This document shows, piece by piece, positions 5,876-28,954 of a stretch of DNA of 32,000 nucleotides. How positions within the stretch are numbered: position 1 is the stretch's first letter; the number at the start of each line of letters is the position of its first letter. Made by a program: the position numbers and the translations under genes. The notes under the pieces are model-generated. The model searched no databases, had not been told where the DNA came from, and saw only the letters and a program-made list of their open reading frames with translations. The stretch is from positions 1,500,001-1,532,000 of the forward strand of contig NZ_CP080507.1 of NCBI RefSeq assembly GCF_019464535.1. Reading direction: 5' to 3'. The DNA comes from Horticoccus luteus. GTDB taxonomy: Bacteria > Verrucomicrobiota > Verrucomicrobiia > Opitutales > Opitutaceae.

Positions 5876-8306
<2,431 letters not shown>

Positions 8307-8879: not shown

Positions 8880-11800
8880 TTATTTTCTGAGTTTGGCGCG
8901 CAGGTAGGGCGCGGTCGGGCTGGACTTCACTTTGAGCAAGCCCGCGAGTTCGCCTTGGTAAATCAGCTCGCCGCCGGCGGGACCACCGCCGGGCCCGAGT
9001 TCGACGACGTAATCGGCCTCGGCGAGGAGATCGAGATGATGCTCGATCACGACGACGGTGTGGCCTTGATCGACGAGGGAATGGAGGACGCGGATGAGTT
9101 TTTCGCAGTCGCTCAGGTGAAGGCCGATGGTCGGTTCCTCGAGGAGGTAGAGGTTGCGCACGGCGGTGCCGCGGGAGCGTTCCTTGTAGCTGGGAAGTCC
9201 GCGCGCGAGCTCGGTGACGAGCTTGAGGCGCTGCGCCTCGCCGCCGGAGAGCGAGGGCGAACTCTGGCCGAGCGTGAGGTAGCCGAGGCCGCAGTCGACC
9301 ATGAGCTGGCAGACTTGGGAGAGCTGGGAATGGAAATCGAAAAACGTGGCGGCTTCGTCGAACGTGAGTTGCAGGACCTGCCCGATGTTTTTCCCTTTCC
9401 AGGCAATCTCGGCGAGGTCGGGGCTGTAGCGGGAACCGTGGCAGTTTTCGCACGGCAGATAAGTGTCGGGCATGAACGCCATCTCGAGCTTGATCCGACC
9501 GGCGCCCTGGCAGGTGTCGCAGCGACCGCCGGCGGTGTTGAAGGAGAAACGCGAGGCGGTGTAGCCGCGCATTTTCGATTCGGGCAACGACGCGAAAAAC
9601 TGGCGGATGATGTCGAAGATGCCGAGGTAAGTCGCGGGCGTGGACCGCGGGGTTTTGCCGATGGGCGACTGGTCGACCTCGATGACGCCTTTGAACCCGT
9701 TTGCGCCGCTGAGTTGGGCGAACGGGAGGCGTTTTTCCTCGGCGTTGAAATGGGTGGCGCGGACGAAACCGCGACCGGAAAGGCGGGGCGTATTCTCCGC
9801 GATGGCGTGTGCGACGGCGGGGTGCAGGAGATCGCGGAAGAGCGTGGACTTGCCGGCGCCACTCGGGCCCGCGGCCATGATGAGGCGACCGTGCGGGAGG
9901 CGCAGGGTGAAACCGCGGAGGTTGCGCAACGCGGCGCCCTTGAGCGTGAGCCATTCCTTCGGTGAGGCGGGCAGCGGCCGATAACTGCCGCGGAGCGGAT
10001 GGGTGATGCCGCGCTGGAGAAAAAGGCCGGTGAGGGATTTTTCGCTGCGCTGGATCTCGGCAGGCGTGCCGTTGGCGAGCAGTTCGCCGCCGTGGATGCC
10101 GGCGGCGGGACCGAGATCGATGATGCGGTCGGCGCGCGCCATGAGCTCGTCATCGTGCTCGACGACGAGGAGCGTGTTACCTTTTTCGCGGAGCGAGATG
10201 AGGGTGTCGATGAGGCGGTCGTTGTCGCGTGCGTGGAGTCCGATGGACGGTTCGTCGAGCACGTAGAGGACGCCCGAGAGATTGGAGCCGAGCTGGGCGG
10301 CGAGGCGGATGCGTTGGGCTTCGCCGCCGGAAAGGGTTTCGGTGGGGCGATCGAGGGAGAGGTAACCGAGGCCGACGTGATCGAGAAACTTCAGGCGTTC
10401 TTCGATCTGCGGCACGATGTCCTGCACGATGAGCCGGCCGCGCGAGTCGAGGTCGAGCTGATGCAGATGCGCGAGAAGTTCGGACGAGGTGCTCGCGAGG
10501 AGTTGCGGCAGAGAAAGTGCGGCGGCGGATTTTGGCGCGGTGGTGCGGGATCTGGCGGGGGCGCGGAAGTGAAGTTTGACGGCGCGCGAGACGCGGTTGA
10601 GGCGGGCGCCGCGGCAATCCGGGCAGGGCGTGCCGGCGTCGGAAACGTCGTCGGACGAATCGATGCCGAACTCGCGAAGGCGGGCGGCGGGATCGTTTTC
10701 GTCGTCCTCATCGGGCTCGAGCATCCAAGGGAAAACGCGACCGTGACCGCGGCACGTCGGACACCAGCCGCGCGGGGAGTTGAACGAGAAATCCTTGGGG
10801 TCGAGTTCGGAAAACGATTCGCCGGTTTCGATGTCGGTGCGCGTGGTGGAGAACCAGGAGAGGACGGCGCCGTCGGGGGTGAGGAGGAAGCACGCGCCTT
10901 TGCCGAGGCGGAGGGCGGTGTCGAGGGCGCTGGAGATCGAGCGCGCGGGCGTGGCGCGTGGGGCGGAGGTGCGCGACGGCGGGGCGGCGGCGGCGGATTC
11001 TTTCAGGTCGGCAACGACGACCTCGATATCGTGCTCTTTGTAGCGATCGAGTTTTTGAAAGGCGTCAACGGGGACGAGCTGGCCGTCGGCGCGCATGAGT
11101 GGGTAGCCCTGTTTGCCGATCCATGTGGCGATGGGCTGATGGTGGCCCTTGCGGCCGCGGATGAGCGGGGCGCAGAGGTAAAGGTGCTTCGCGCGGCGGG
11201 CTTTCGGCGTGGCGAGGACGCGCGCGAGAAGGTTCTTGAGCTGGCCGAGCGAGAGCGGCTGCACGGCTTTGTCGGTGTCGGGATGATGCTGAATGCCGAG
11301 GCGCGCGTAGAGAAGCCGCAGGTATTGCGCGACCTCGGTGATGGTGGCGACCGTGGACTTGCGGGAGCCGCGAGTGACGCGTTGCTCGATGGCGACGGTC
11401 GGTGGAATGCCGGTGAGGCGATCGATCGCGGGGCGCGGGAGTTGTTCGACGAACTGGCGCGCGTAGGGCGACATGGATTCCATGAACCGCCGCTGGCCCT
11501 CGGCAAAGACGATGTCGAATGCGAGGGTGGATTTGCCCGAACCGGACACGCCGGTGACGACGTTGAGTTGATGGTGCGGGATGGTGAGCGAGAGGTTTTT
11601 GAGGTTGTTCTCGCGGGCGCCGGTGATGACGAGCTCGGCGGGTCGATGGGCCGGTGTTGGTCGATAGGGCGCGGCCTCTTCGGCGGCGGCGAGCGCGGTG
11701 GAATTGTCACCTGAGAGGCTGCCATCGCGGAGGGCGGCGCGGAGGAAGGGCGATGTGGCGGTGTCGGCGGCGGCGACCTGCTCGGGGGTGCCTTCGGCGA

Positions 11801-14717
11801 CGATGCGGCCGCCGGCGGCACCGGCGTCGGGGCCGATTTCGAGGACCCAGTCGGCGGACTTGAGGACGTCGAGATTGTGCTCGATCACGATCACGCTGTG
11901 GCCGCGGTCGACGAGCGCCTGGAGAACGAAGAGGAGGCGTTTGACGTCGTGGCGGTGGAGGCCGGTCGTGGGCTCATCGAGCAGGAGGAGCGCGCCAGAG
12001 GACGGCGGCGCGGAGAGCGGCGAACCCTTCGCGTCGCCGGTGAAGGTGCCGAGGTAGCGGACGAGTTTCAGTCGTTGGGATTCGCCGCCACTGAGGGTGT
12101 TGAGGGGTTGACCGAGCGTGAGGTAGCCGAGACCGACGGAGTCGAGGGAGGCGAGGCGGCGGAGGATTTCGGGGTGCGCGGCGAAGAGCGGGAGCGCATC
12201 GGTGACGCTCGTGGCGAGCAGGTCGGCGACGGAACGGTCGTGCCACTGGATCGCAAGGACTTCGGGTTTGAAGCGGCGGCCCTCGCAGATGGGACACGGG
12301 ACGAAAACGTCGGAGAGAAACTGCATCTCGACGCGTTCGTAGCCAAGGCCCTGGCAGTGATCGCAACGGCCTTCGCCGCTGTTGAACGAAAATGAGGACG
12401 CGTTGAAACCGGCTTGCTGTGCGGCAGGCGTGGCGGCGTAGAGGTCGCGGATGAGTTCCCATGCATCGGTGTAGAGCGCGGGGTTCGAGCGCGGCGTGCG
12501 CGAGAGGGGGGATTGATCGACGAGGACGATTTCGGAAAACGGCGCGTCGGCCGGCGCGGGCAGGATGGATTCGATCGCGGCGGGGTCTTCGGTGAGCTGG
12601 AGACGTTGCGCGAGGAGGCCTTGGTAAATGACGTTGTCGAGGAGCGTGGACTTGCCGGAGCCGGAGACGCCGCTGAGGCAGACGAAGCGTTGCAGTGGCA
12701 GGCGAAAGGAGAGTGCGGCGAGGTTGTGCTTGGTGGCGTTTTTGAAATGGAGAAACGGAGGCGCGCCAGCGGCGCGTGCGTTCACCGAAACGGGTCGGCG
12801 CTGCGCGGGCGCCTCGATCGACTCGCGCCCGGAGAAATACGCGCCGGTGATGCTTTGCGGGGCGCGCAGCATGGCGGCCACGGGGCCTTGGAAAACGATG
12901 TGGCCTCCGCGGCTGCCGGGTTCGGGGCCGACCTCGATGACGTGATCGGCGGCGCGAATCATCGCCTCGTCGTGCTCGACGACGACGACAGTGTTGCCCG
13001 CATCGGTGAGCGTGCGGATGATGCCGATGAGGCGGTCGATGTCGCGCGGATGCAGGCCGACGCTGGGCTCGTCGAGGACAAAGAGCGTGTCGACAAGAGA
13101 CGTGCCGAGACAGCTCGTGAGGTTGACGCGTTGGACTTCGCCGCCGGACAGCGTTTTCGAGGTGCGGTCGAGCGTGAGGTAGCCGAGGCCGACCTGTGCG
13201 AGATAACGCAGGCGCGTGACGATCGAATCGTAAGCGAGGGACGCGGAGTGCGCGTCGGACGGAGTTTCGTTTAACGGGCGGAAAGCCACGAGTCGGGCGA
13301 GCAGTTCGGAAACGGGGAGTTGATAAAGTTCGGGAAGCGTTTGCTGCTGCCATTTCCAGCAGAGCGCGTCGGGTTGGAGACGTTGTCCGCCGCACGCAGG
13401 GCAGGGGTTATAGGCGCGATAACGAGCGAGGAAGACGCGCACGTGCATCTTGTAGGTGTTCTTCTCGAGCCAGCGGAAGAAACCCTTCACGCCATACCAA
13501 TATTGCGGCCACGTCTTGCCGTTTTCTTCGCCGTAGCCGGGCTCGCCGTTGACGATGAAATCGCGCTGCTCGGGCGTGAGGGACGCGAAGGGAACGTTGG
13601 TCGGGATCTTGAGGCGACGGGTGAATTTCAGCAGGTCCTTTTTGGACTCGCCGTAGATTTCGCTCTCCCAGCATTTGATCGCGCCGTCGTCGATCGAGAG
13701 CGACTGATCGGGCAGTGCGAGGCGGTAGTCGATCTCGATGATGCGACCGAAGCCGCGACATTGAGGACAGGCACCGAGTGGAGAGTTGAAGGAGAAAAGG
13801 GGCGGCGTGGCGGCGCGAAACGTGCGGCCGGTGCGGGGCGAATGCAGACCGCGCGAATAGTGGCCGATCTGCTCAAGGGGAACGGTGCTGGCGGTGGCGG
13901 CAGGCGTGGCGAAGAGGTAGACTTCGCCTTGCCCGAAATGCAGCGCGGTTTCCGTGGCTTCGAGGAAACGCGACCGCTGATCGGAGCTGAGCGTGACGCG
14001 ATCCTGGGCGACAAAGATGCGCTCCCGCGGAGCGAGGATGGAGTCGTTGGCCAGAAGGTCGTCAACGCGATGCAGGGCGCAGCGAAGGCCGGCGGAATCG
14101 TCGGTGGTCGATTCGGGCACGAGGACGCGAATGTAGGACTGGCCTTTGAGATTCTGCAGGATCTCCGGCCAGGTGAGGTTCGCGGGTTTGACGATTTTGA
14201 ATGCGACGACAGTGGCGCGGTCAGGGTGCGCGGACGCGGCTTTGGTCCAGATGGTGGCGGGCGTATCGTCTTCGACTTTCTCGCCGGTGGCGGGATCGAA
14301 GCACTCGGCGACGTGGCTGAACCAGACTTTGAAGAAGTCGGTGAGCTCCGTCATCGTGCCGACGGTGGAGCGGGAGGTTTTGACGGTGTTGGTCTGCTCG
14401 ATGGCGATCGACGGGCGGATGTTTTCGATTGAGTCGACCTTGGGTTTGTCGAGGAGGTCGAGGAACTGGCGCGTGTAAGCGCTGAACGTCTCGACGTAGC
14501 GACGCTGGCCCTCGGCGTGCAGCGTGTCGAAAACGAGCGACGATTTCCCCGCGCCACTCAGGCCGGTGACGACGACGTATTGCCCGAGGGGCAGATCGAG
14601 ATCGAAGCCTTTGAGATTGTTTTGGCGCACGCCGCGCAACCGAATGGAGGAGGACGCGGCGAAAGATGCAGCGAGTGACACGGCGACCACCGATGAGCAC
14701 CCGATGCGAGAATGCAA
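8880..14717 (-). CDS. Tandem-duplicated (double-length) UvrA-family ABC ATPase, 4 nucleotide-binding modules
   Basis: 1945 aa. Four Walker A loops: GLSGAGKS (14541-14564), GVSGSGKS (12648-12671), GVSGSGKS (11529-11552), GPSGAGKS (9846-9869). There are four LSGGE signatures followed by Walker B (LDEPS/LDEPT/LEEPT), two FSFNSP..CPxCxGxG motifs and two GRCDxCQGxG...PCxxCxGxR Zn-fingers. The start is ambiguous: TTG 14717, GTG 14690 or GTG 14681, all before IRLRGVRQNNLKG. Confidence 0.9.
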   Translation of the reverse strand: MHSRIGCSSVVAVSLAASFAASSSIRLRGVRQNNLKGFDLDLPLGQYVVVTGLSGAGKSSLVFDTLHAEGQRRYVETFSAYTRQFLDLLDKPKVDSIENIRPSIAIEQTNTVKTSRSTVGTMTELTDFFKVWFSHVAECFDPATGEKVEDDTPATIWTKAASAHPDRATVVAFKIVKPANLTWPEILQNLKGQSYIRVLVPESTTDDSAGLRCALHRVDDLLANDSILAPRERIFVAQDRVTLSSDQRSRFLEATETALHFGQGEVYLFATPAATASTVPLEQIGHYSRGLHSPRTGRTFRAATPPLFSFNSPLGACPQCRGFGRIIEIDYRLALPDQSLSIDDGAIKCWESEIYGESKKDLLKFTRRLKIPTNVPFASLTPEQRDFIVNGEPGYGEENGKTWPQYWYGVKGFFRWLEKNTYKMHVRVFLARYRAYNPCPACGGQRLQPDALCWKWQQQTLPELYQLPVSELLARLVAFRPLNETPSDAHSASLAYDSIVTRLRYLAQVGLGYLTLDRTSKTLSGGEVQRVNLTSCLGTSLVDTLFVLDEPSVGLHPRDIDRLIGIIRTLTDAGNTVVVVEHDEAMIRAADHVIEVGPEPGSRGGHIVFQGPVAAMLRAPQSITGAYFSGRESIEAPAQRRPVSVNARAAGAPPFLHFKNATKHNLAALSFRLPLQRFVCLSGVSGSGKSTLLDNVIYQGLLAQRLQLTEDPAAIESILPAPADAPFSEIVLVDQSPLSRTPRSNPALYTDAWELIRDLYAATPAAQQAGFNASSFSFNSGEGRCDHCQGLGYERVEMQFLSDVFVPCPICEGRRFKPEVLAIQWHDRSVADLLATSVTDALPLFAAHPEILRRLASLDSVGLGYLTLGQPLNTLSGGESQRLKLVRYLGTFTGDAKGSPLSAPPSSGALLLLDEPTTGLHRHDVKRLLFVLQALVDRGHSVIVIEHNLDVLKSADWVLEIGPDAGAAGGRIVAEGTPEQVAAADTATSPFLRAALRDGSLSGDNSTALAAAEEAAPYRPTPAHRPAELVITGARENNLKNLSLTIPHHQLNVVTGVSGSGKSTLAFDIVFAEGQRRFMESMSPYARQFVEQLPRPAIDRLTGIPPTVAIEQRVTRGSRKSTVATITEVAQYLRLLYARLGIQHHPDTDKAVQPLSLGQLKNLLARVLATPKARRAKHLYLCAPLIRGRKGHHQPIATWIGKQGYPLMRADGQLVPVDAFQKLDRYKEHDIEVVVADLKESAAAAPPSRTSAPRATPARSISSALDTALRLGKGACFLLTPDGAVLSWFSTTRTDIETGESFSELDPKDFSFNSPRGWCPTCRGHGRVFPWMLEPDEDDENDPAARLREFGIDSSDDVSDAGTPCPDCRGARLNRVSRAVKLHFRAPARSRTTAPKSAAALSLPQLLASTSSELLAHLHQLDLDSRGRLIVQDIVPQIEERLKFLDHVGLGYLSLDRPTETLSGGEAQRIRLAAQLGSNLSGVLYVLDEPSIGLHARDNDRLIDTLISLREKGNTLLVVEHDDELMARADRIIDLGPAAGIHGGELLANGTPAEIQRSEKSLTGLFLQRGITHPLRGSYRPLPASPKEWLTLKGAALRNLRGFTLRLPHGRLIMAAGPSGAGKSTLFRDLLHPAVAHAIAENTPRLSGRGFVRATHFNAEEKRLPFAQLSGANGFKGVIEVDQSPIGKTPRSTPATYLGIFDIIRQFFASLPESKMRGYTASRFSFNTAGGRCDTCQGAGRIKLEMAFMPDTYLPCENCHGSRYSPDLAEIAWKGKNIGQVLQLTFDEAATFFDFHSQLSQVCQLMVDCGLGYLTLGQSSPSLSGGEAQRLKLVTELARGLPSYKERSRGTAVRNLYLLEEPTIGLHLSDCEKLIRVLHSLVDQGHTVVVIEHHLDLLAEADYVVELGPGGGPAGGELIYQGELAGLLKVKSSPTAPYLRAKLRK

Positions 14718-24126: not shown

Positions 24127-24795
24127 TCACGTCAGATGGAAGCCGAGCGCATCAAGCTCGGAGAGGTGAAAGGGCGCGCTGGCGATCACGTCCTGCAAGA
24201 GAGTCCACGCATCCGCGAGTCGCTCGGTCTGGGCAATCGCGAGTCCGTCGTCGCTGTCGTGGAGGTGCAGTTCCCAGGCCGCCGCTGCGTCGGCGGAGAG
24301 CTGGAGCAGAGTGCCGTGAAGATAATTGCCCGGAATGCCGGGGTGCGGCCCGCCGCCCGGGACGAGAAACAAGCTGCGCACGGCGTCGTGGGCGATGATG
24401 CCGGCGTGCTTGCGATGTTGCACCGTCCGCCCCGCGACCGCGAGACGCAGCGCCTCGGCTTTCGGGCGGGACGCCGCAGGGAGTGATTGCACGTAGCGTG
24501 TGAAGATCGCGTCGTTGGGTTCCAGCGCGTCGGCTGAAATCTCGCCGGCGGCGAGCGCCGCGAGGTTGGCCGCATGGAAGGAGGGTTTGGCCGCGAGGGA
24601 GCGCGCGGTGACGTAGGCATCCTTATGCTCCGCGTGAGCGAAGACTTGATGCGAGGAACGCAGGCGCACGAGTGCGTCCTGGTAGGCGGGAGTGTGCGGC
24701 ACGGCGCCGGTGGGACTGTGGTCGATAAAGTCGAGGACAGTTTGATCGTATGCGTCGTGGGGGCCGTGACTCATGTGGGCCGAGCGTGGCAGCAA
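24127..24795 (-). CDS. Hypothetical His-rich cytoplasmic protein, no family recognised
   Basis: 222-aa ORF from TTG 24795; the first ATG is 24774 (MSHGPHDAYDQ..., 215 aa). It shows the strong C-ending codon bias and G-rich first positions of real - strand genes here, while the overlapping + frame ORF is a GNN shadow. There are 17-18 His (about 8 percent), often as H-x-H or H-x2-H (AHAEHKD, VQHRKHAGIIAHD, ELHLHDSDD). No signal peptide or TM segment. Confidence 0.6.
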   Translation of the reverse strand: MLPRSAHMSHGPHDAYDQTVLDFIDHSPTGAVPHTPAYQDALVRLRSSHQVFAHAEHKDAYVTARSLAAKPSFHAANLAALAAGEISADALEPNDAIFTRYVQSLPAASRPKAEALRLAVAGRTVQHRKHAGIIAHDAVRSLFLVPGGGPHPGIPGNYLHGTLLQLSADAAAAWELHLHDSDDGLAIAQTERLADAWTLLQDVIASAPFHLSELDALGFHLT

Positions 24796-24932: not shown

Positions 24933-25967
24933 TTGCGGCTTGTGGCGGCGAGAGAGCCGCACCAGCGTGAGCCGGTGATCGCGTCGGTCCATTTTCAACG
25001 ATTCAAGGCGCTCCGGGATACGCGTCTGAACTTGCTGCCGTTTAACCTCGTGATTGGCCCCAACGGCAGCGGCAAGACGAGTTTGTTGCAGGCGATCGAG
25101 CGTTTGTGCGCTCTTGCGAAGCTTCCGCTGGCCACGGAGGAAGTGGCGGGGCGCACCGATGCGGCGGAAGTGAGTTTCACGTTCACGGCACCTCACGCGC
25201 ACGTGGAAGCGCGGCTGGGGTGCGTCGACGATCTGCGCTGCGATTTGCTGCGGACCTCGGCGGCGGGCCCGGAATGGGAGGCGTTGCGGGAAAAATTGCG
25301 GCGCGGGCGGAATTACGCGTTCGACCCGGCGACACTGGCTTTGCCGGCGAGGCGGGCAGAAGGAGGGGAACTGGCGGGCGACGGCAGAAACCTGGCGGCG
25401 GTGCTGGCGATGCGCCAGGAACGCCATCCGGGATGGTTTGCGCGAATGGAACAGGAATTTCTGCGCGTGATGCCGGAATTTTCTGCGCTCTCTTTCAGCA
25501 CGCCCGCGGCGGAGCAGGTGGCGTTGGAAATGGTGCTCGCGGGGAGCGAGCGTGGCGCGCGCGTGGCCGCCGACGATGTTTCCCAAGGCACGTTGGTGTT
25601 GCTGGCGTTGCTGGCCCTCGCGTTCGATCCGGCGCCACCGCCGATCATGTGTTTCGACGAAGTGGAGCGGGGCCTCCATCCGCGACTGCTGCGCGAAGTG
25701 CGGGATACCCTCTATCGCCTGAGTTATCCACTGACGGTGAACGAGACGCGGGAGCCCGTGCAGATTGTGGCGACAACGCATTCGCCGTATTTGGTGGATC
25801 TCTTTCGCGAGCATCCGGAGGAGATCGTGATTTCGCACAAGATCGGCACGCGGGCGCATTTCGAGCGGTTGTCGGAGCGGAAGGATTTGCCGGGGTTGTT
25901 GGGCGAAGGTTCGCTGGGCGACATCTGGTTCAGCGGGATTCTGGGCGGGGTGCCCGAGGAGCGATGA
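24933..25967 (+). CDS. Compact ABC/OLD-type ATPase (AAA_21/AAA_15-like)
   Basis: The track start is TTG 24933. The in-frame GTG 24975 gives (M)IASVHFQRFKALRDTRLNL..., the usual N-terminus of this ATPase class. Motifs: Walker A GPNGSGKTS (25056-25082, Lys 25074-25076), signature-like VSQGTLVLL, Walker B IMCFDEVERGLHP (Asp-Glu 25656-25661) and H-loop ATTHSPYLVD. There is no long coiled-coil insert. Confidence 0.85.
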   Translation: MRLVAAREPHQREPVIASVHFQRFKALRDTRLNLLPFNLVIGPNGSGKTSLLQAIERLCALAKLPLATEEVAGRTDAAEVSFTFTAPHAHVEARLGCVDDLRCDLLRTSAAGPEWEALREKLRRGRNYAFDPATLALPARRAEGGELAGDGRNLAAVLAMRQERHPGWFARMEQEFLRVMPEFSALSFSTPAAEQVALEMVLAGSERGARVAADDVSQGTLVLLALLALAFDPAPPPIMCFDEVERGLHPRLLREVRDTLYRLSYPLTVNETREPVQIVATTHSPYLVDLFREHPEEIVISHKIGTRAHFERLSERKDLPGLLGEGSLGDIWFSGILGGVPEER

Positions 25968-26605
25968 GGCTGGCGATTTTGAGCGAATCGCCGGCGGACG
26001 AAGCGGCGTTGGAGGTGTGGATTGCGGGGCTGCTGCGGGCTCCGATCGAGCGGGTGCAGGCGAATCTGCGGGCGCGCGGCTGGCCGTCGGTCGTCCAGAT
26101 TTTGCCCGCGGTCATCCGGCATTTGCATTTCAACACGCCCGCGCAGGCATTGGTCGTCGTGGTCGATGCGGATGACTCCGTCGTGCACACCGAAGAGCAT
26201 GATCGCCCGGGATATTTTCATCCGCACTGCCGCATGTGTCGCGTGCGGGCGGTGTTTCGGCAGACGACGAAAAATCTGCCGCCCGCGCACGGACGCTCGG
26301 GCGTGCTGCGGGGCGTCGGCATCGCGGTGCCCGCGATCGAAGCATGGTATCTTTGTGGACGCGATCCAACGGTCACGGAGCTGGCGTGGCGCGACGGGCA
26401 GGCGACGGACCGGCAACCGTATTCGCGGGCGGAGTTGAAGTGGCGGGTTTACGGAACGGACCGGCCTTCGCTGCCGCTCGAAACGAGTCGGGCCGTCGAG
26501 GAGGCCAAGCGGCAGCAAAGCGATACGCGCCGGCTGGAGAGCGATTTTCCGGGTTTCGCGGCGCTGGCGCGCGATGTGCGAAGTTGGGTGAAAAGTGCGC
26601 GGTAG
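25964..26605 (+). CDS. Small TOPRIM-like protein (DUF4276-like), translationally coupled to the ATPase
   Basis: 213 aa. This is the real 3' third of the chimeric 499-aa track ORF 25106-26605. ATG 25964 overlaps the ATPase stop (ATGA). Motifs: MRLAILSES (strand + Glu, 25985-25987), LVVVVDADD (strand + DxDD, 26165-26176), HPHCRMC (26219-26239) and AIEAWYL (Glu 26339-26341). The motif order E...DxD fits a TOPRIM core; the family assignment is from memory and unverified. Confidence 0.6.
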   Translation: MRLAILSESPADEAALEVWIAGLLRAPIERVQANLRARGWPSVVQILPAVIRHLHFNTPAQALVVVVDADDSVVHTEEHDRPGYFHPHCRMCRVRAVFRQTTKNLPPAHGRSGVLRGVGIAVPAIEAWYLCGRDPTVTELAWRDGQATDRQPYSRAELKWRVYGTDRPSLPLETSRAVEEAKRQQSDTRRLESDFPGFAALARDVRSWVKSAR

Positions 26606-26734: not shown

Positions 26735-28954
26735 GTGCTAAAACGACGCTCTTACCTGCCCCGACCGCTGGAGTGGATCGCGTGCGGCCTCGCGCGGTTG
26801 CTCTACCGCGTTCGCACGCGGGGCGGAGAGCACATCCCGGTGACAGGCGGCGCCGTGCTGATCGCGAATCACCTGTCGTATGTTGACGTGGTGGTGCTGC
26901 AACTGGCGTGTCCGCGGCCGGTGCGCTTCGTCGGGTTTCAGGGCCTCGGCGAGCACGCTTTTTTCGCGTGGGTGTTTCGGATGTCGGGCACGATTCCTTT
27001 GCAGGTGGAAAATCCGGCGGCGGGGATCCGCGCGGCGGTGCAGGCGGCGCGGGCCGGCGAGGTGGTCGCGATTTTTCCGGAGGGAAATATTTCGCGCACG
27101 GGACAGTTGATGGCGTTGAAGCGGGGCTTTGAGGTGGTGGCGCGGCAGGCGCACGTGCCGGTGATTCCGGCGGCCATCGATGGCGTGTGGGGCTCCGTTT
27201 TTTCCTTCGCCGGGAATCGTTACCTGTGGAAGTCGCCGCGCTTGATGCGCACGCCGGTGTTCGTGCAGTTCGGTCCGGCGTTGGCGCCAGAGCAGGCCGA
27301 TCTGGCGCGGGCGCGGCAGGCGTTGCTGGATGCGGGGGCGGAGGCGTTTCAGGAGCGGCCGGCGTTGCAGCGGCATCTGGGGCGGGAGTGCGTGCGGGCG
27401 CTCGCGCGGCAACCCGGGCGCGTGCGCGTGATCGATCGCACGGTGCAGCGGCGCGAAGTGAAAGCGGGGCAACTCCTCGCGGCGGCGGCGGCGTTTTCGC
27501 GGCGTGTGCGCCGCACCATCCCGGAGCAGCGCGTGGGGATCGTGCTGCCGCCGGGCGCGGGCGCGTTTATCGCGAACCTCGGCGTCTTGTGCGCGGGAAA
27601 AGTGCCGGTGAATCTCAACTTCACCGCGGGGCGGGCGGCGTTGGAAGCGAGCCTGCGGTTGGGCGAGATCAAGACCGTGATTTCGGCGGAGGCGATGCGC
27701 GGCAAAGTGCCGGACTTTCCCTGGCCGGAGCGGACGCTGGATTTGCGGCGCGAGCTGGAGGCGATGGGAGGGAAGCGCGCGATTTTGCCGTGGTTACTGG
27801 CCGCGTGGTTGCTGCCGAATCAGTGGGTGGCGGACTTGCTGGGTCTGCCGCGCGTGGGCGATCGCGCGGAGGCCGGTTTGTTGTTTACCAGCGGCAGCTC
27901 GGGCGAACCGAAGGGCGTGGCGTTGTCGCATCGCAACATCCTCGCCAACGCGGCGCAGGTGTCGTCGCTCTCGATCCTTCCGCCCAACGCGAGCCTCATC
28001 GGCTGCCTGCCGTTGTTCCACAGTTTCGGATTCACCGTCACCTTGTGGTATCCGCTGCTGCGCGGATGCCAGGTCGTCACGGTGCCGAGTCCGCTCGACA
28101 CCCGCAAAATCATCGACGCGATCAGCGAAGAAGGTGCGACCGTGTTGGTGGGGGCGCCGACGTTTATCCGACCGATTTTGCGCAAGGCGAAGCCGGAGGA
28201 GTTGCGTTCGCTGGACTTGGTCGTGACGGGTGCGGAAAAGCTGCCGCAGGATCTTTACGACAAGTTTCTCGAACAATTTCACATCGAGATTTTGCAGGGC
28301 TACGGGCTCACGGAAACGACGCCCGTGAGCAACGTGAACCAACCGCATCCGCCGGTGACGAGCGCGACCGCCCAGCCGCAAGTGGGAAAGCGGCCGGGCT
28401 CGACGGGGCGTTTGCTGCCGGGCATGACGGTGCGTATCGTGGATCCGGAGACGGCAGAGGAAATGCCGGCGGGCGAGCCGGGCATCGTGTGGTTTCGCGG
28501 AGCGAACGTGTTCAGCGGTTATTTGGGCGATGAAGCGAAAACAAAGGCGGCGTTTCGCGATGGCTGGTTCGTCACCGGCGATTTGGGGCGAATCGACGAA
28601 GAAGGGTTTTTGTTCATCGAGGGGCGGTTGTCGCGGTTCTCGAAAATCGGCGGCGAGATGGTGCCGCACGGGACGGTGGAGCAGAAAATCGAACAGGCGT
28701 TCGGCTGGGAACAGCAGGACGGCTACACGATTGCGGTGATGGGTGTGCCCGATGCGGCGAAAGGCGAGGCGTTGGTTTTGCTGACGACGGTGGAGATCAA
28801 TGCGGACGAACTTCGCACGCGGTTGCTCGCCGCCGGCCTGCCGGCGCTCTGGGTGCCGAAGATCATCCGGCGCGTGGAAAAAATCCCTGTGCTGGGCACG
28901 GGCAAGCTGGACCTCAAACGTTGCCGCGATCTCGCGATCGAACTGGCGGGCTGA
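26735..28954 (+). CDS. aas: Bifunctional lysophospholipid acyltransferase / acyl-ACP (AMP-forming) synthetase, Aas-like
   Basis: 739 aa, GTG start. The N-terminal PlsC-type acyltransferase has NHLSYVD (H-x4-D) and FPEGNISRTG. The C-terminal adenylate-forming domain has LLFTSGSSGEPKGVALSHRNI, GYGLTETTP, WFVTGDLGRIDEEGFLFIEGRLSRFSKIGGEMV and GTGKLD. Domain order and size match E. coli Aas (about 720 aa). Confidence 0.8.
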   Translation: MLKRRSYLPRPLEWIACGLARLLYRVRTRGGEHIPVTGGAVLIANHLSYVDVVVLQLACPRPVRFVGFQGLGEHAFFAWVFRMSGTIPLQVENPAAGIRAAVQAARAGEVVAIFPEGNISRTGQLMALKRGFEVVARQAHVPVIPAAIDGVWGSVFSFAGNRYLWKSPRLMRTPVFVQFGPALAPEQADLARARQALLDAGAEAFQERPALQRHLGRECVRALARQPGRVRVIDRTVQRREVKAGQLLAAAAAFSRRVRRTIPEQRVGIVLPPGAGAFIANLGVLCAGKVPVNLNFTAGRAALEASLRLGEIKTVISAEAMRGKVPDFPWPERTLDLRRELEAMGGKRAILPWLLAAWLLPNQWVADLLGLPRVGDRAEAGLLFTSGSSGEPKGVALSHRNILANAAQVSSLSILPPNASLIGCLPLFHSFGFTVTLWYPLLRGCQVVTVPSPLDTRKIIDAISEEGATVLVGAPTFIRPILRKAKPEELRSLDLVVTGAEKLPQDLYDKFLEQFHIEILQGYGLTETTPVSNVNQPHPPVTSATAQPQVGKRPGSTGRLLPGMTVRIVDPETAEEMPAGEPGIVWFRGANVFSGYLGDEAKTKAAFRDGWFVTGDLGRIDEEGFLFIEGRLSRFSKIGGEMVPHGTVEQKIEQAFGWEQQDGYTIAVMGVPDAAKGEALVLLTTVEINADELRTRLLAAGLPALWVPKIIRRVEKIPVLGTGKLDLKRCRDLAIELAG

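Follow-up and report, generated by a model that had tools for sequence, protein, structure and literature searches.

The window analysed here is a 32,000-nucleotide (nt) stretch of the Horticoccus luteus genome (assembly GCF_019464535.1, contig NZ_CP080507.1, positions 1,500,001 to 1,532,000 of the forward strand), and its coordinates are used throughout. On its plus strand lies a pair of genes that an earlier reading of the bare letters, called below the original prediction, had taken for a candidate defence module related to the OLD nucleases. Open reading frame (ORF) 1 (24975..25967) encodes a 330-amino-acid (aa) ATP-binding cassette (ABC) ATPase of the AAA_21/AAA_15 type, and ORF2 (25964..26605, from an ATG at 25964 to a TAG ending at 26605) a 213-aa protein of an unannotated family. 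The stop codon of ORF1 overlaps the start codon of ORF2 by 4 nt in the sequence ATGA (25964..25967), an arrangement of translational coupling that was confirmed both in the ORF table and in the raw sequence. The mechanical start of ORF1 in the ORF list is TTG at 24933; since all four orthologues aligned, from Opitutus terrae, Nibricoccus and Rariglobus, begin with MIASV or MISTI, we place the start at GTG 24975, as had been proposed together with a length of ~330 aa. The sequence motifs that the original prediction quoted for both proteins were all found in place. ORF1 and ORF2 have a GC content of 0.64-0.66 and a GC content at third codon positions of 0.77, and their neighbours are alike.

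All the elements of an ABC ATPase are intact in ORF1: a Walker A motif GPNGSGKT (25056..25079, with K34 at 25074-25076), a signature-like motif S203-Q-G-T206 (SQGT; 25581..25592), a Walker B motif IMCFDE (25644..25661) ending in the catalytic glutamate E229, and the H-loop histidine H269 of TTHSP (25779..25781). The signature-like motif and H269 are invariant in the four-orthologue alignment. Across 50 species, G28, G31, S32, G33 and K34 of Walker A and G205 of the signature-like motif are at least 98% conserved, while D228 is replaced by glutamate in ~98% of orthologues. Conservation falls to 0.47-0.63 in residues 41-200, compared with 0.72-0.89 in the core. The C-terminal tail, GDIWFSGILGGVPEER (25917..25964), is again an invariant block in the four orthologues; its W-[FY]-S-G-I-L-G-G-V-P motif recurs in L086 and L088, which come from other phyla, and is a candidate for the site at which ORF2 docks.

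In Pfam, ORF1 exceeded the gathering scores of both AAA_21 (2.2e-30, 107.2 bits; gathering score 27) and AAA_15 (1.9e-18, 67.7 bits; gathering score 32.1). Its best match in any library was the PADLOC-DB model HEC-01A (6.6e-38), with 128.8 bits as compared with 383 for a true HEC-01A; here and below, PADLOC comparisons are PADLOC-DB model scores and not PADLOC's own thresholds. HEC-01 is a PADLOC candidate system composed of an ABC ATPase, HEC-01A, and a TOPRIM-like protein, HEC-01B (Payne et al., bioRxiv 10.1101/2024.01.29.577857). Further PADLOC-DB matches were to AriA (at generic, AAA_21/AAA_15-like coordinates), PDC-M07A, PDC-M25A, PDC-M31A, mad3, AbiLi (3.3e-16), Old and ATPase-Toprim. 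The top NCBIfam match, the Mad3 equivalog of MADS (antiphage_MADS3), reached 72.5 bits against a cutoff of 420. When the four-orthologue profile was compared with PDB sequences, the closest was the OLD protein of Thermus scotoductus (6P74; 5.6e-8), and Rad50, the retron Ec83 ATPase and the PtuA ATPase were also found. ORF1 is thus presumably a compact, active ABC ATPase of the OLD/HEC-01 neighbourhood, in agreement with the original prediction of an OLD/PARIS-type enzyme; judged from its profile scores, it belongs to no named equivalog.

Homologues of ORF2 are abundant. At E <= 0.01, 2188 were found in a 90%-clustered database, the best 120 of them all 67-99% identical, and an exhaustive HMMER scan gave 566 clusters at 50% identity, nearly all of about 210 aa. 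Two confident AlphaFold2 models, both with an alpha/beta core, were obtained (pLDDT 86.5 and pTM 0.82 for model 1, pLDDT 90.5 and pTM 0.87 for model 2). Both predict the same N-terminal order of strand 1 (residues 2-7), a helix, a short strand 2, a helix and strand 3 (62-68), followed by a 47-residue insertion bearing two histidines and two cysteines (HHCC), strand 4 (116-122) and a helical C-terminal domain of about residues 139-212. The conserved acidic residues lie at the ends of these strands. E8 (25985..25987), with S9, D12 and E13, directly follows strand 1; it is invariant, unchanged in alignments of 38, 30 and 99 sequences, and S7 and S9 are nearly so. The sequence D68-A-D70-D71 (26165..26176) lies at the C-terminal end of strand 3, and of its residues D68 is invariant family-wide, and D70 and D71 within Opitutaceae but not in every distant member. 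Directly after strand 4, E126-A-W128 of the motif P-A-I-E-A-W (26339..26347, E126 at 26339-26341) has its glutamate and tryptophan invariant throughout the family.

The insertion between strands 3 and 4 contains H75-x3-H79-x9-C89-x2-C92 (26186..26239), which includes HPHCRMC. C89, R90 and C92 never vary in the 99-sequence alignment, where conservation of H75 and H79 is at least 90%, and from this H-x3-H-x9-C-x2-C spacing we infer a zinc knuckle. Among members 35-70% identical, E8, D68, R90, E126, W128, E139, K159, Y163, F195 and W208 are invariant, and conservation is at least 90% at S9, D12, G39, H75, C89 and C92; a comparison of 50 species has 66 positions with conservation of at least 98%. 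ORF2 represents a family of its own, distinct from DUF4276, RloB and DUF4435.

The placement of a Glu after strand 1 and an Asp (DxD) after strand 3, by which a TOPRIM domain is recognized, is present in both ORF2 models, and TOPRIM enzymes carry their acidic residues in the same places (PMC12065111). We also scanned 38 members of the ORF2 family one by one against PADLOC-DB and Pfam. Half of them weakly matched HEC-01B models: 19 of the 38 matched PDLC04202 (best 6e-5), 16 matched PDLC04205, and two matched PDLC04196 (7.4e-6). The model mad4 was matched by five members (best 1.3e-3) and PDC-M38B by four. In Pfam, six members matched RloB (best 1.2e-4) and three matched DUF4276 (best 0.066, 13.8 bits; gathering score 30.2). 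These matches to partner proteins are weak but colinear, and the RloB and DUF4276 alignments cover the catalytic core; that with RloB runs from family residues 56-190 over profile positions 61-174 of 195. HEC-01B, DUF4276 and RloB are all described in the literature as TOPRIM-like. A TOPRIM fold is plausible for ORF2, and we consider it likely that the protein is a remote TOPRIM-like relative of DUF4276, RloB and DUF4435.

The distribution of the pair was determined by a pattern scan in which a single genome stood for each GTDB species. It located ORF2 relatives in 368 species; this count is biased to Opitutaceae-like sequences because the closer alignment, A1, was used, the diverse alignment being without a conserved stretch. 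The best 80 of the 368 all belong to Opitutales/Opitutaceae and represent at least seven named genera (Opitutus, Lacunisphaera, Oleiharenicola, Nibricoccus, Rariglobus, Didemnitutus and Salsuginivita). Using the window genes in tblastn, an ORF1 orthologue was found directly upstream of ORF2 in 76 of these 80 loci; of the four exceptions, two lie at contig edges and two (L011 and L035) are without an adjoining ATPase. Of 81 related loci, 41 share the 4-nt overlap; elsewhere ORF1 and ORF2 are separated by no more than 266 nt. Six distant members (40-50% identical to ORF2), one Phycisphaerae metagenome-assembled genome (MAG) among their sources, all have an ATPase of 330-360 aa directly upstream, with the 4-nt overlap in 6/6. 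The pairing is far beyond chance, and the translationally coupled pair proposed in the original prediction holds up in close and distant genomes alike. Around the distant pairs lie differing sets of housekeeping genes: SmpB with pantothenate genes, NAPRTase, pyruvate-ferredoxin oxidoreductase, QueG, MoaA and ThiC, methylmalonyl-CoA mutase, and purine genes. Since these neighbourhoods are wholly different, ORF1 and ORF2 constitute a self-contained module.

The idea that a small third gene lies between the two ORFs was rejected, the gap peptides of 25 loci being unrelated. In O. terrae the 160-nt gap is annotated as a 55-aa gene (L001:7837-8004), which has no counterpart elsewhere and is probably a spurious call. 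Public gene calls shorten the ATPase to 120-227 aa in loci of distant relatives (L086, L087, L088 and L094, upstream of position 6004). In the two that were checked, L086 and L088, a full ATPase ORF of 348-357 aa with Walker A is present upstream. Shortened annotation of this kind would cause searches by domain to miss the pair. L087 also carries, ~4 kb from its pair, a second and different AAA_15/AAA_21 ATPase (514 aa; L087:10946-12633) with a 155-aa unannotated partner downstream, possibly another system of ATPase and effector.

The mode of inheritance was examined in 50 Opitutaceae species having ORF1, ORF2 and aas, the downstream neighbour. In the window, the aas-like gene (26735..28954, plus strand) encodes 739 aa with acyltransferase and acyl-ACP synthetase parts (Pfam; NCBIfam PRK08633, 5.5e-229) and serves only as context. 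Distance matrices of the three proteins were correlated, with Mantel r of 0.74 for ORF1-ORF2, 0.77 for ORF2-aas and 0.79 for ORF1-aas (permutation p <= 5e-4). Mean pairwise identity was 71% for ORF2, 67% for aas and 57% for ORF1. Compared with a relative whose ORF2 is 86-87% identical, dN/dS was 0.19 for ORF1 and 0.12 for ORF2, a sign of purifying selection; the AsmA-like gene, the OEP gene and an inserted 222-aa gene gave 0.10-0.17 with the same relative. A tblastn search with ORF2 found none in 72,556 plasmids and none in 50,697 phage records, and a scan of IMG/VR viral contigs, aimed at close relatives of ORF2, likewise found none. The pair is fixed and vertically inherited in Opitutaceae, and as constrained as its housekeeping neighbours. 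In most Opitutaceae loci aas lies within 6 kb downstream, and in many an RND/OEP/AsmA-like block lies upstream. A functional link of the pair to aas or to the AsmA-like gene was rejected, since neither adjoins it in the six loci from other lineages; this association is lineage-specific synteny and not function.

Because the pair is chromosomally fixed and vertically inherited throughout Opitutaceae, we read it as a domesticated or lineage-wide module of nucleic-acid surveillance or maintenance and not as a mobile anti-phage island. The combined claim, that this fixed module works as an ATPase-gated TOPRIM-like nuclease, we favour at slightly better than even odds. It starts from the ATPase identity of ORF1, the obligate pairing, the conservation and placement of the ORF2 residues and the mode of inheritance, and proceeds by analogy with OLD and PARIS. 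In the working model, which follows PARIS AriA/AriB and OLD in general outline, ORF1 would be the sensor or clamp and would dimerize head-to-head on ATP. It would hold ORF2 in a complex, possibly through its invariant W-F-S-G-I-L-G-G-V-P tail, with co-translation coupling the two proteins. A nucleic-acid or protein cue would lead to ATP binding or hydrolysis by ORF1, and this would license ORF2. The E/D/E cluster of ORF2 may coordinate Mg2+ or Mn2+, the zinc knuckle and the C-terminal helical domain may bind substrate, and the predicted target of cleavage is either DNA or an RNA with structure, for example tRNA. Point mutants for such a pair would be K34 and E229 in ORF1 and E8, D68, E126, C89 and C92 in ORF2.

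Several observations weigh against this reading. Even at E <= 1, neither Pfam nor NCBIfam yields a match for ORF2 itself, and its lone match in PADLOC-DB is to one HEC-01B model at E 0.0058, with 14.7 bits as compared with 222-303 for true HEC-01B. Foldseek searches of PDB and BFVD with both ORF2 models returned nothing at E <= 0.001 and no TOPRIM protein. The best E was 0.009, with TM-scores of 0.2-0.46, and the folds matched were generic flavodoxin/Rossmann-like ones (lumazine and riboflavin synthases, SGNH/GDSL esterases and the RadA core). The highest TM-score of model 1 was to 2P62/PH0156 (TM 0.45, probability 0.89), which a published table gives as the leading HHpred template of a PARIS AriB/DUF4435 protein; it was no longer among the top 50 when the better model 2 was used. 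The original proposal that ORF2 is TOPRIM-like is supported by the placement of acidic residues and by the weak HEC-01B, RloB and mad4 matches, and not by the Foldseek searches. D70 of the 'DxD' varies in distant members. An hhalign comparison of the ORF2 family with DUF4276 (PF14103) gave a probability of 0.42 with 3 sequences and 0.30 with 123. The two Opitutaceae MAGs mentioned above keep an intact, fully conserved ORF2 with no adjoining ATPase (L011:4196-4849 and L035:5054-5701); a large minus-strand ORF lies upstream of the lone gene in one, and ATP-synthase-like genes in the other. Because of these two genomes, ORF2 may not strictly need ORF1; either the ATPase has been relocated in the genome or ORF2 works alone. 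Finally, HEC-01 showed no defence when tested in E. coli, and since it is the nearest named candidate, no relative offers a usable phenotype.

We also compared the pair with the known systems that it most resembles. As in HEC-01, two genes are arranged with the ATPase before a small partner of ~210 aa, and ORF1 finds its best match in HEC-01A. It differs from HEC-01 in the scores given above and in the models concerned: the ORF2 family touches PDLC04202, PDLC04205 and PDLC04196, not the DUF4276-type models PDLC04186-04190. True DUF4276 proteins score 166-210 bits with Pfam and match those HEC-01B models at 1e-19 to 1e-91. The context differs as well. Aeromonas and Piscirickettsia supply the nearest plasmid ATPases, which share 21-26% identity with ORF1 and are each followed by a DUF4276 gene; two of the three plasmid pairs have a methylase gene on one side and a helicase or SNF2 gene on the other, the classic context of HEC-01 and of Hma (helicase-methylase-ATPase) systems, with methylase plus helicase or SNF2 genes flanking the Aeromonas examples. 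The window pair, by comparison, lies outside any Hma or other defence system, and is vertically inherited where HEC-01 is patchy.

The original prediction had likened ORF2 to DUF4276, and this identity was rejected: ORF2 has no match to the Pfam family at E <= 10, and the low hhalign probabilities were obtained with a DUF4276 profile of limited, gammaproteobacterial diversity, with which residues 2-22 alone were aligned (the first strand-Glu motif) and the local and global modes were null. The resemblance to DUF4276 and to Mad3-Mad4 lies in a small partner directly downstream of an AAA_21 ATPase and in the order of an N-terminal strand-E...E, a single Asp after a later strand, and then E-x-[EW]. 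DUF4276 is without the HHCC knuckle, and its own SPSKR and other motifs are missing from ORF2. MADS is set apart by the low Mad3 score and by the absence of a methyltransferase from the window. The best Pfam link of the ORF2 family is to RloB/AbiLii (PF13707), the partner of RloA/AbiLi ATPases, and the AbiLi matches of ORF1 agree with this. The P-x-x-E-x-W of ORF2 after strand 4 may resemble the F-E-x-W motif of RloB. All family scores with RloB, however, are 12-16 bits (12.6-15.9 in three members seen individually) against a gathering score of 31.5, ORF2 itself is unmatched, and the pair has no context of type I restriction-modification or of an Abi plasmid. With OLD, GajA and PARIS it shares an ABC ATPase of the same broad clade, 6P74 being the closest solved sequence, and the proposed logic of an ATPase sensor gating a TOPRIM metal-dependent nuclease. 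In OLD and GajA, however, ATPase and TOPRIM form one chain and here they are split into two ORFs, ORF1 has ~330 aa compared with ~450-580 in those systems, and the pair is chromosomal and fixed, unlike PARIS and OLD, which are carried by phages or satellites and have a patchy distribution. Neither TOPRIM_OLD in Pfam nor DUF4435/AriB in Pfam and PADLOC-DB was matched by ORF2 or its family.

The first alternative is that the pair is a conventional abortive-infection module against phages or plasmids, a split OLD, HEC-01 or PARIS-like system in which a phage trigger sensed by the ATPase releases the TOPRIM nuclease. All detectable relatives do belong to known or candidate defence systems (HEC-01A/B, AriA, mad3/mad4, AbiLi, RloB and PDC-M07, M25, M31 and M38), and an ABC ATPase with a TOPRIM protein is a recurrent defence architecture. 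The variable insertion of ORF1 at residues 41-200 is of a kind often seen in sensor domains, and other phyla carry the pair as a two-gene cassette at different chromosomal sites. The behaviour of the genes argues otherwise, and we regard this alternative as unlikely. The original prediction had inferred a conflict system and suggested looking for variable islands across genomes; in Opitutaceae the pair is instead syntenic between the AsmA-like gene and aas and has co-diverged with aas. ORF2 evolves more slowly than that housekeeping enzyme, and its dN/dS is like that of the neighbours. The scores of both proteins with defence models are far under those of true members, relatives of ORF2 are missing from the plasmid and phage collections searched and close relatives from IMG/VR, and HEC-01 itself was unprotective. 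The window has no other defence, methylase or mobile genes, no tRNA, tmRNA, Rfam family or integrase, and only short, chance-level repeats; together with the base composition, this bears out the earlier caveat that there was no sign of recent mobility. That prediction had also named a conserved housekeeping context in all relatives, joined to the absence of a protection or toxicity phenotype, as a point on which its inference would fall, and in Opitutaceae such a context is where the pair sits.

The second alternative takes this context at face value: the pair would be a strict housekeeping factor, like RecF/RecR or SbcCD, for DNA repair and recombination or for the processing of stable RNA. 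The core-like distribution, the synteny, the slow evolution and the housekeeping neighbours in every lineage examined would all fit, as would the persistence of an intact ORF2 at loci without an adjoining ATPase. TOPRIM proteins with housekeeping duties include RNase M5 and RecR, the latter with a zinc motif as well. We nevertheless consider this reading improbable. No similarity to RecF, RecR, SbcCD or RNase M5 was seen beyond the P-loop; the recF match of ORF1 (1.1e-8) is limited to residues 2-47, and RecR and RNase M5 are absent among the PDB profile matches. Outside Opitutaceae there is no conserved functional neighbour that would indicate a pathway, the family has so far been seen in limited lineages, unlike universal repair genes, and every relative that can be named is a protein of a conflict system. 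That ORF2 is no nuclease at all, being a flavodoxin-like-fold hydrolase (for example SGNH-like, with S7 and S9 as the nearly invariant residues) or a non-catalytic regulator of the ATPase, would accord with the Foldseek matches to synthases and esterases and with one source that labels a homologue a 'predicted acyl esterase', but is highly improbable, since all those structural matches are non-significant, no Pfam esterase matches at E <= 10, a conserved GxND block and a C-terminal DxxH block are lacking, the reproducible profile links are solely to RloB, DUF4276, HEC-01B and Mad4, and the invariant set consists mostly of strand-end acidic residues plus the HHCC knuckle, as would fit a metal-dependent nucleic-acid enzyme.

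As for the biological role, the homologues suggest a conflict system and the way in which the genes evolve suggests a core function; the reading that we prefer is that of a fixed module for surveillance or maintenance. On a more far-reaching reading, Opitutaceae and some lineages of Planctomycetota and Acidobacteriota would have domesticated an OLD/HEC-01-like ATPase and its TOPRIM-like nuclease, which would now serve a vertically inherited core function, either housekeeping (genome maintenance or RNA processing) or that of a permanently fixed innate sensor. ORF2, with its HHCC zinc knuckle, would then define a new family that domain and defence databases have missed; this we put forward tentatively, as a possibility that is less probable than not. 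The architecture of an ABC ATPase with a small TOPRIM-like partner is already known; the ORF2 family, the HHCC insertion and the core-gene behaviour are distinctive. Modules of ABC ATPase and TOPRIM (OLD, Gabija, PARIS, HEC-01, MADS) are usually seen as mobile immunity with fast turnover, and a fixed, slowly evolving relative of such pairs is unusual: the present one behaves as a core gene, being syntenic, found in several hundred species and slower-evolving, in ORF2, than the adjacent lipid-recycling enzyme. If its role is defence, it would be unusual in being an innate system that is fixed, and would offer a useful contrast to ideas on the turnover of defence islands; if its role is housekeeping, it would represent exaptation of a conflict-system architecture. 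Having more than 2000 sequences and no Pfam or NCBIfam model, the ORF2 family would be invisible or marginal to annotation of the DefenseFinder or PADLOC type.

The neighbours of the pair in the window are the AsmA-like gene, aas, RND efflux genes and a response regulator, and the promoter and terminator signals near the pair were not above those of shuffled sequences. In the remainder of the window are a PEP-CTERM protein with exosortase, MarR, an RND efflux system and a UvrA-like giant protein. The last is a 1944-aa ORF on the minus strand (8880-14717) with several ABC_tran/P-loop matches as well as UvrA_inter and UvrA_DNA-bind; it looks like a UvrA-like protein of about twice the canonical length. 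Between the AsmA-like gene and ORF1, outside the conserved module, lies the unannotated 222-aa gene (24127..24795, minus strand), which has no Pfam or NCBIfam match and is absent from 85 related loci tested; other Opitutaceae have only ~60-110 nt at this site. One close relative keeps it (L095:6003-6650) at 78% identity with a dN/dS of 0.13, and we therefore regard the gene as real and lineage-specific. In O. terrae (CP001032), cytochrome oxidase genes replace the upstream RND/OEP/AsmA-like synteny, and a transposase-like gene of the rve family (L001:5493-6656) lies directly upstream of the ATPase. In L011, the aas-like gene stands alone no longer, as it does in the window, but has acquired an N-terminal multi-pass membrane domain (MFS/LplT-like) by fusion, with a product of 1190 aa (L011:4957-8529), and loci in which ORF2 and aas are 1.3-2 kb apart may carry this transporter as a separate gene or as a fusion.

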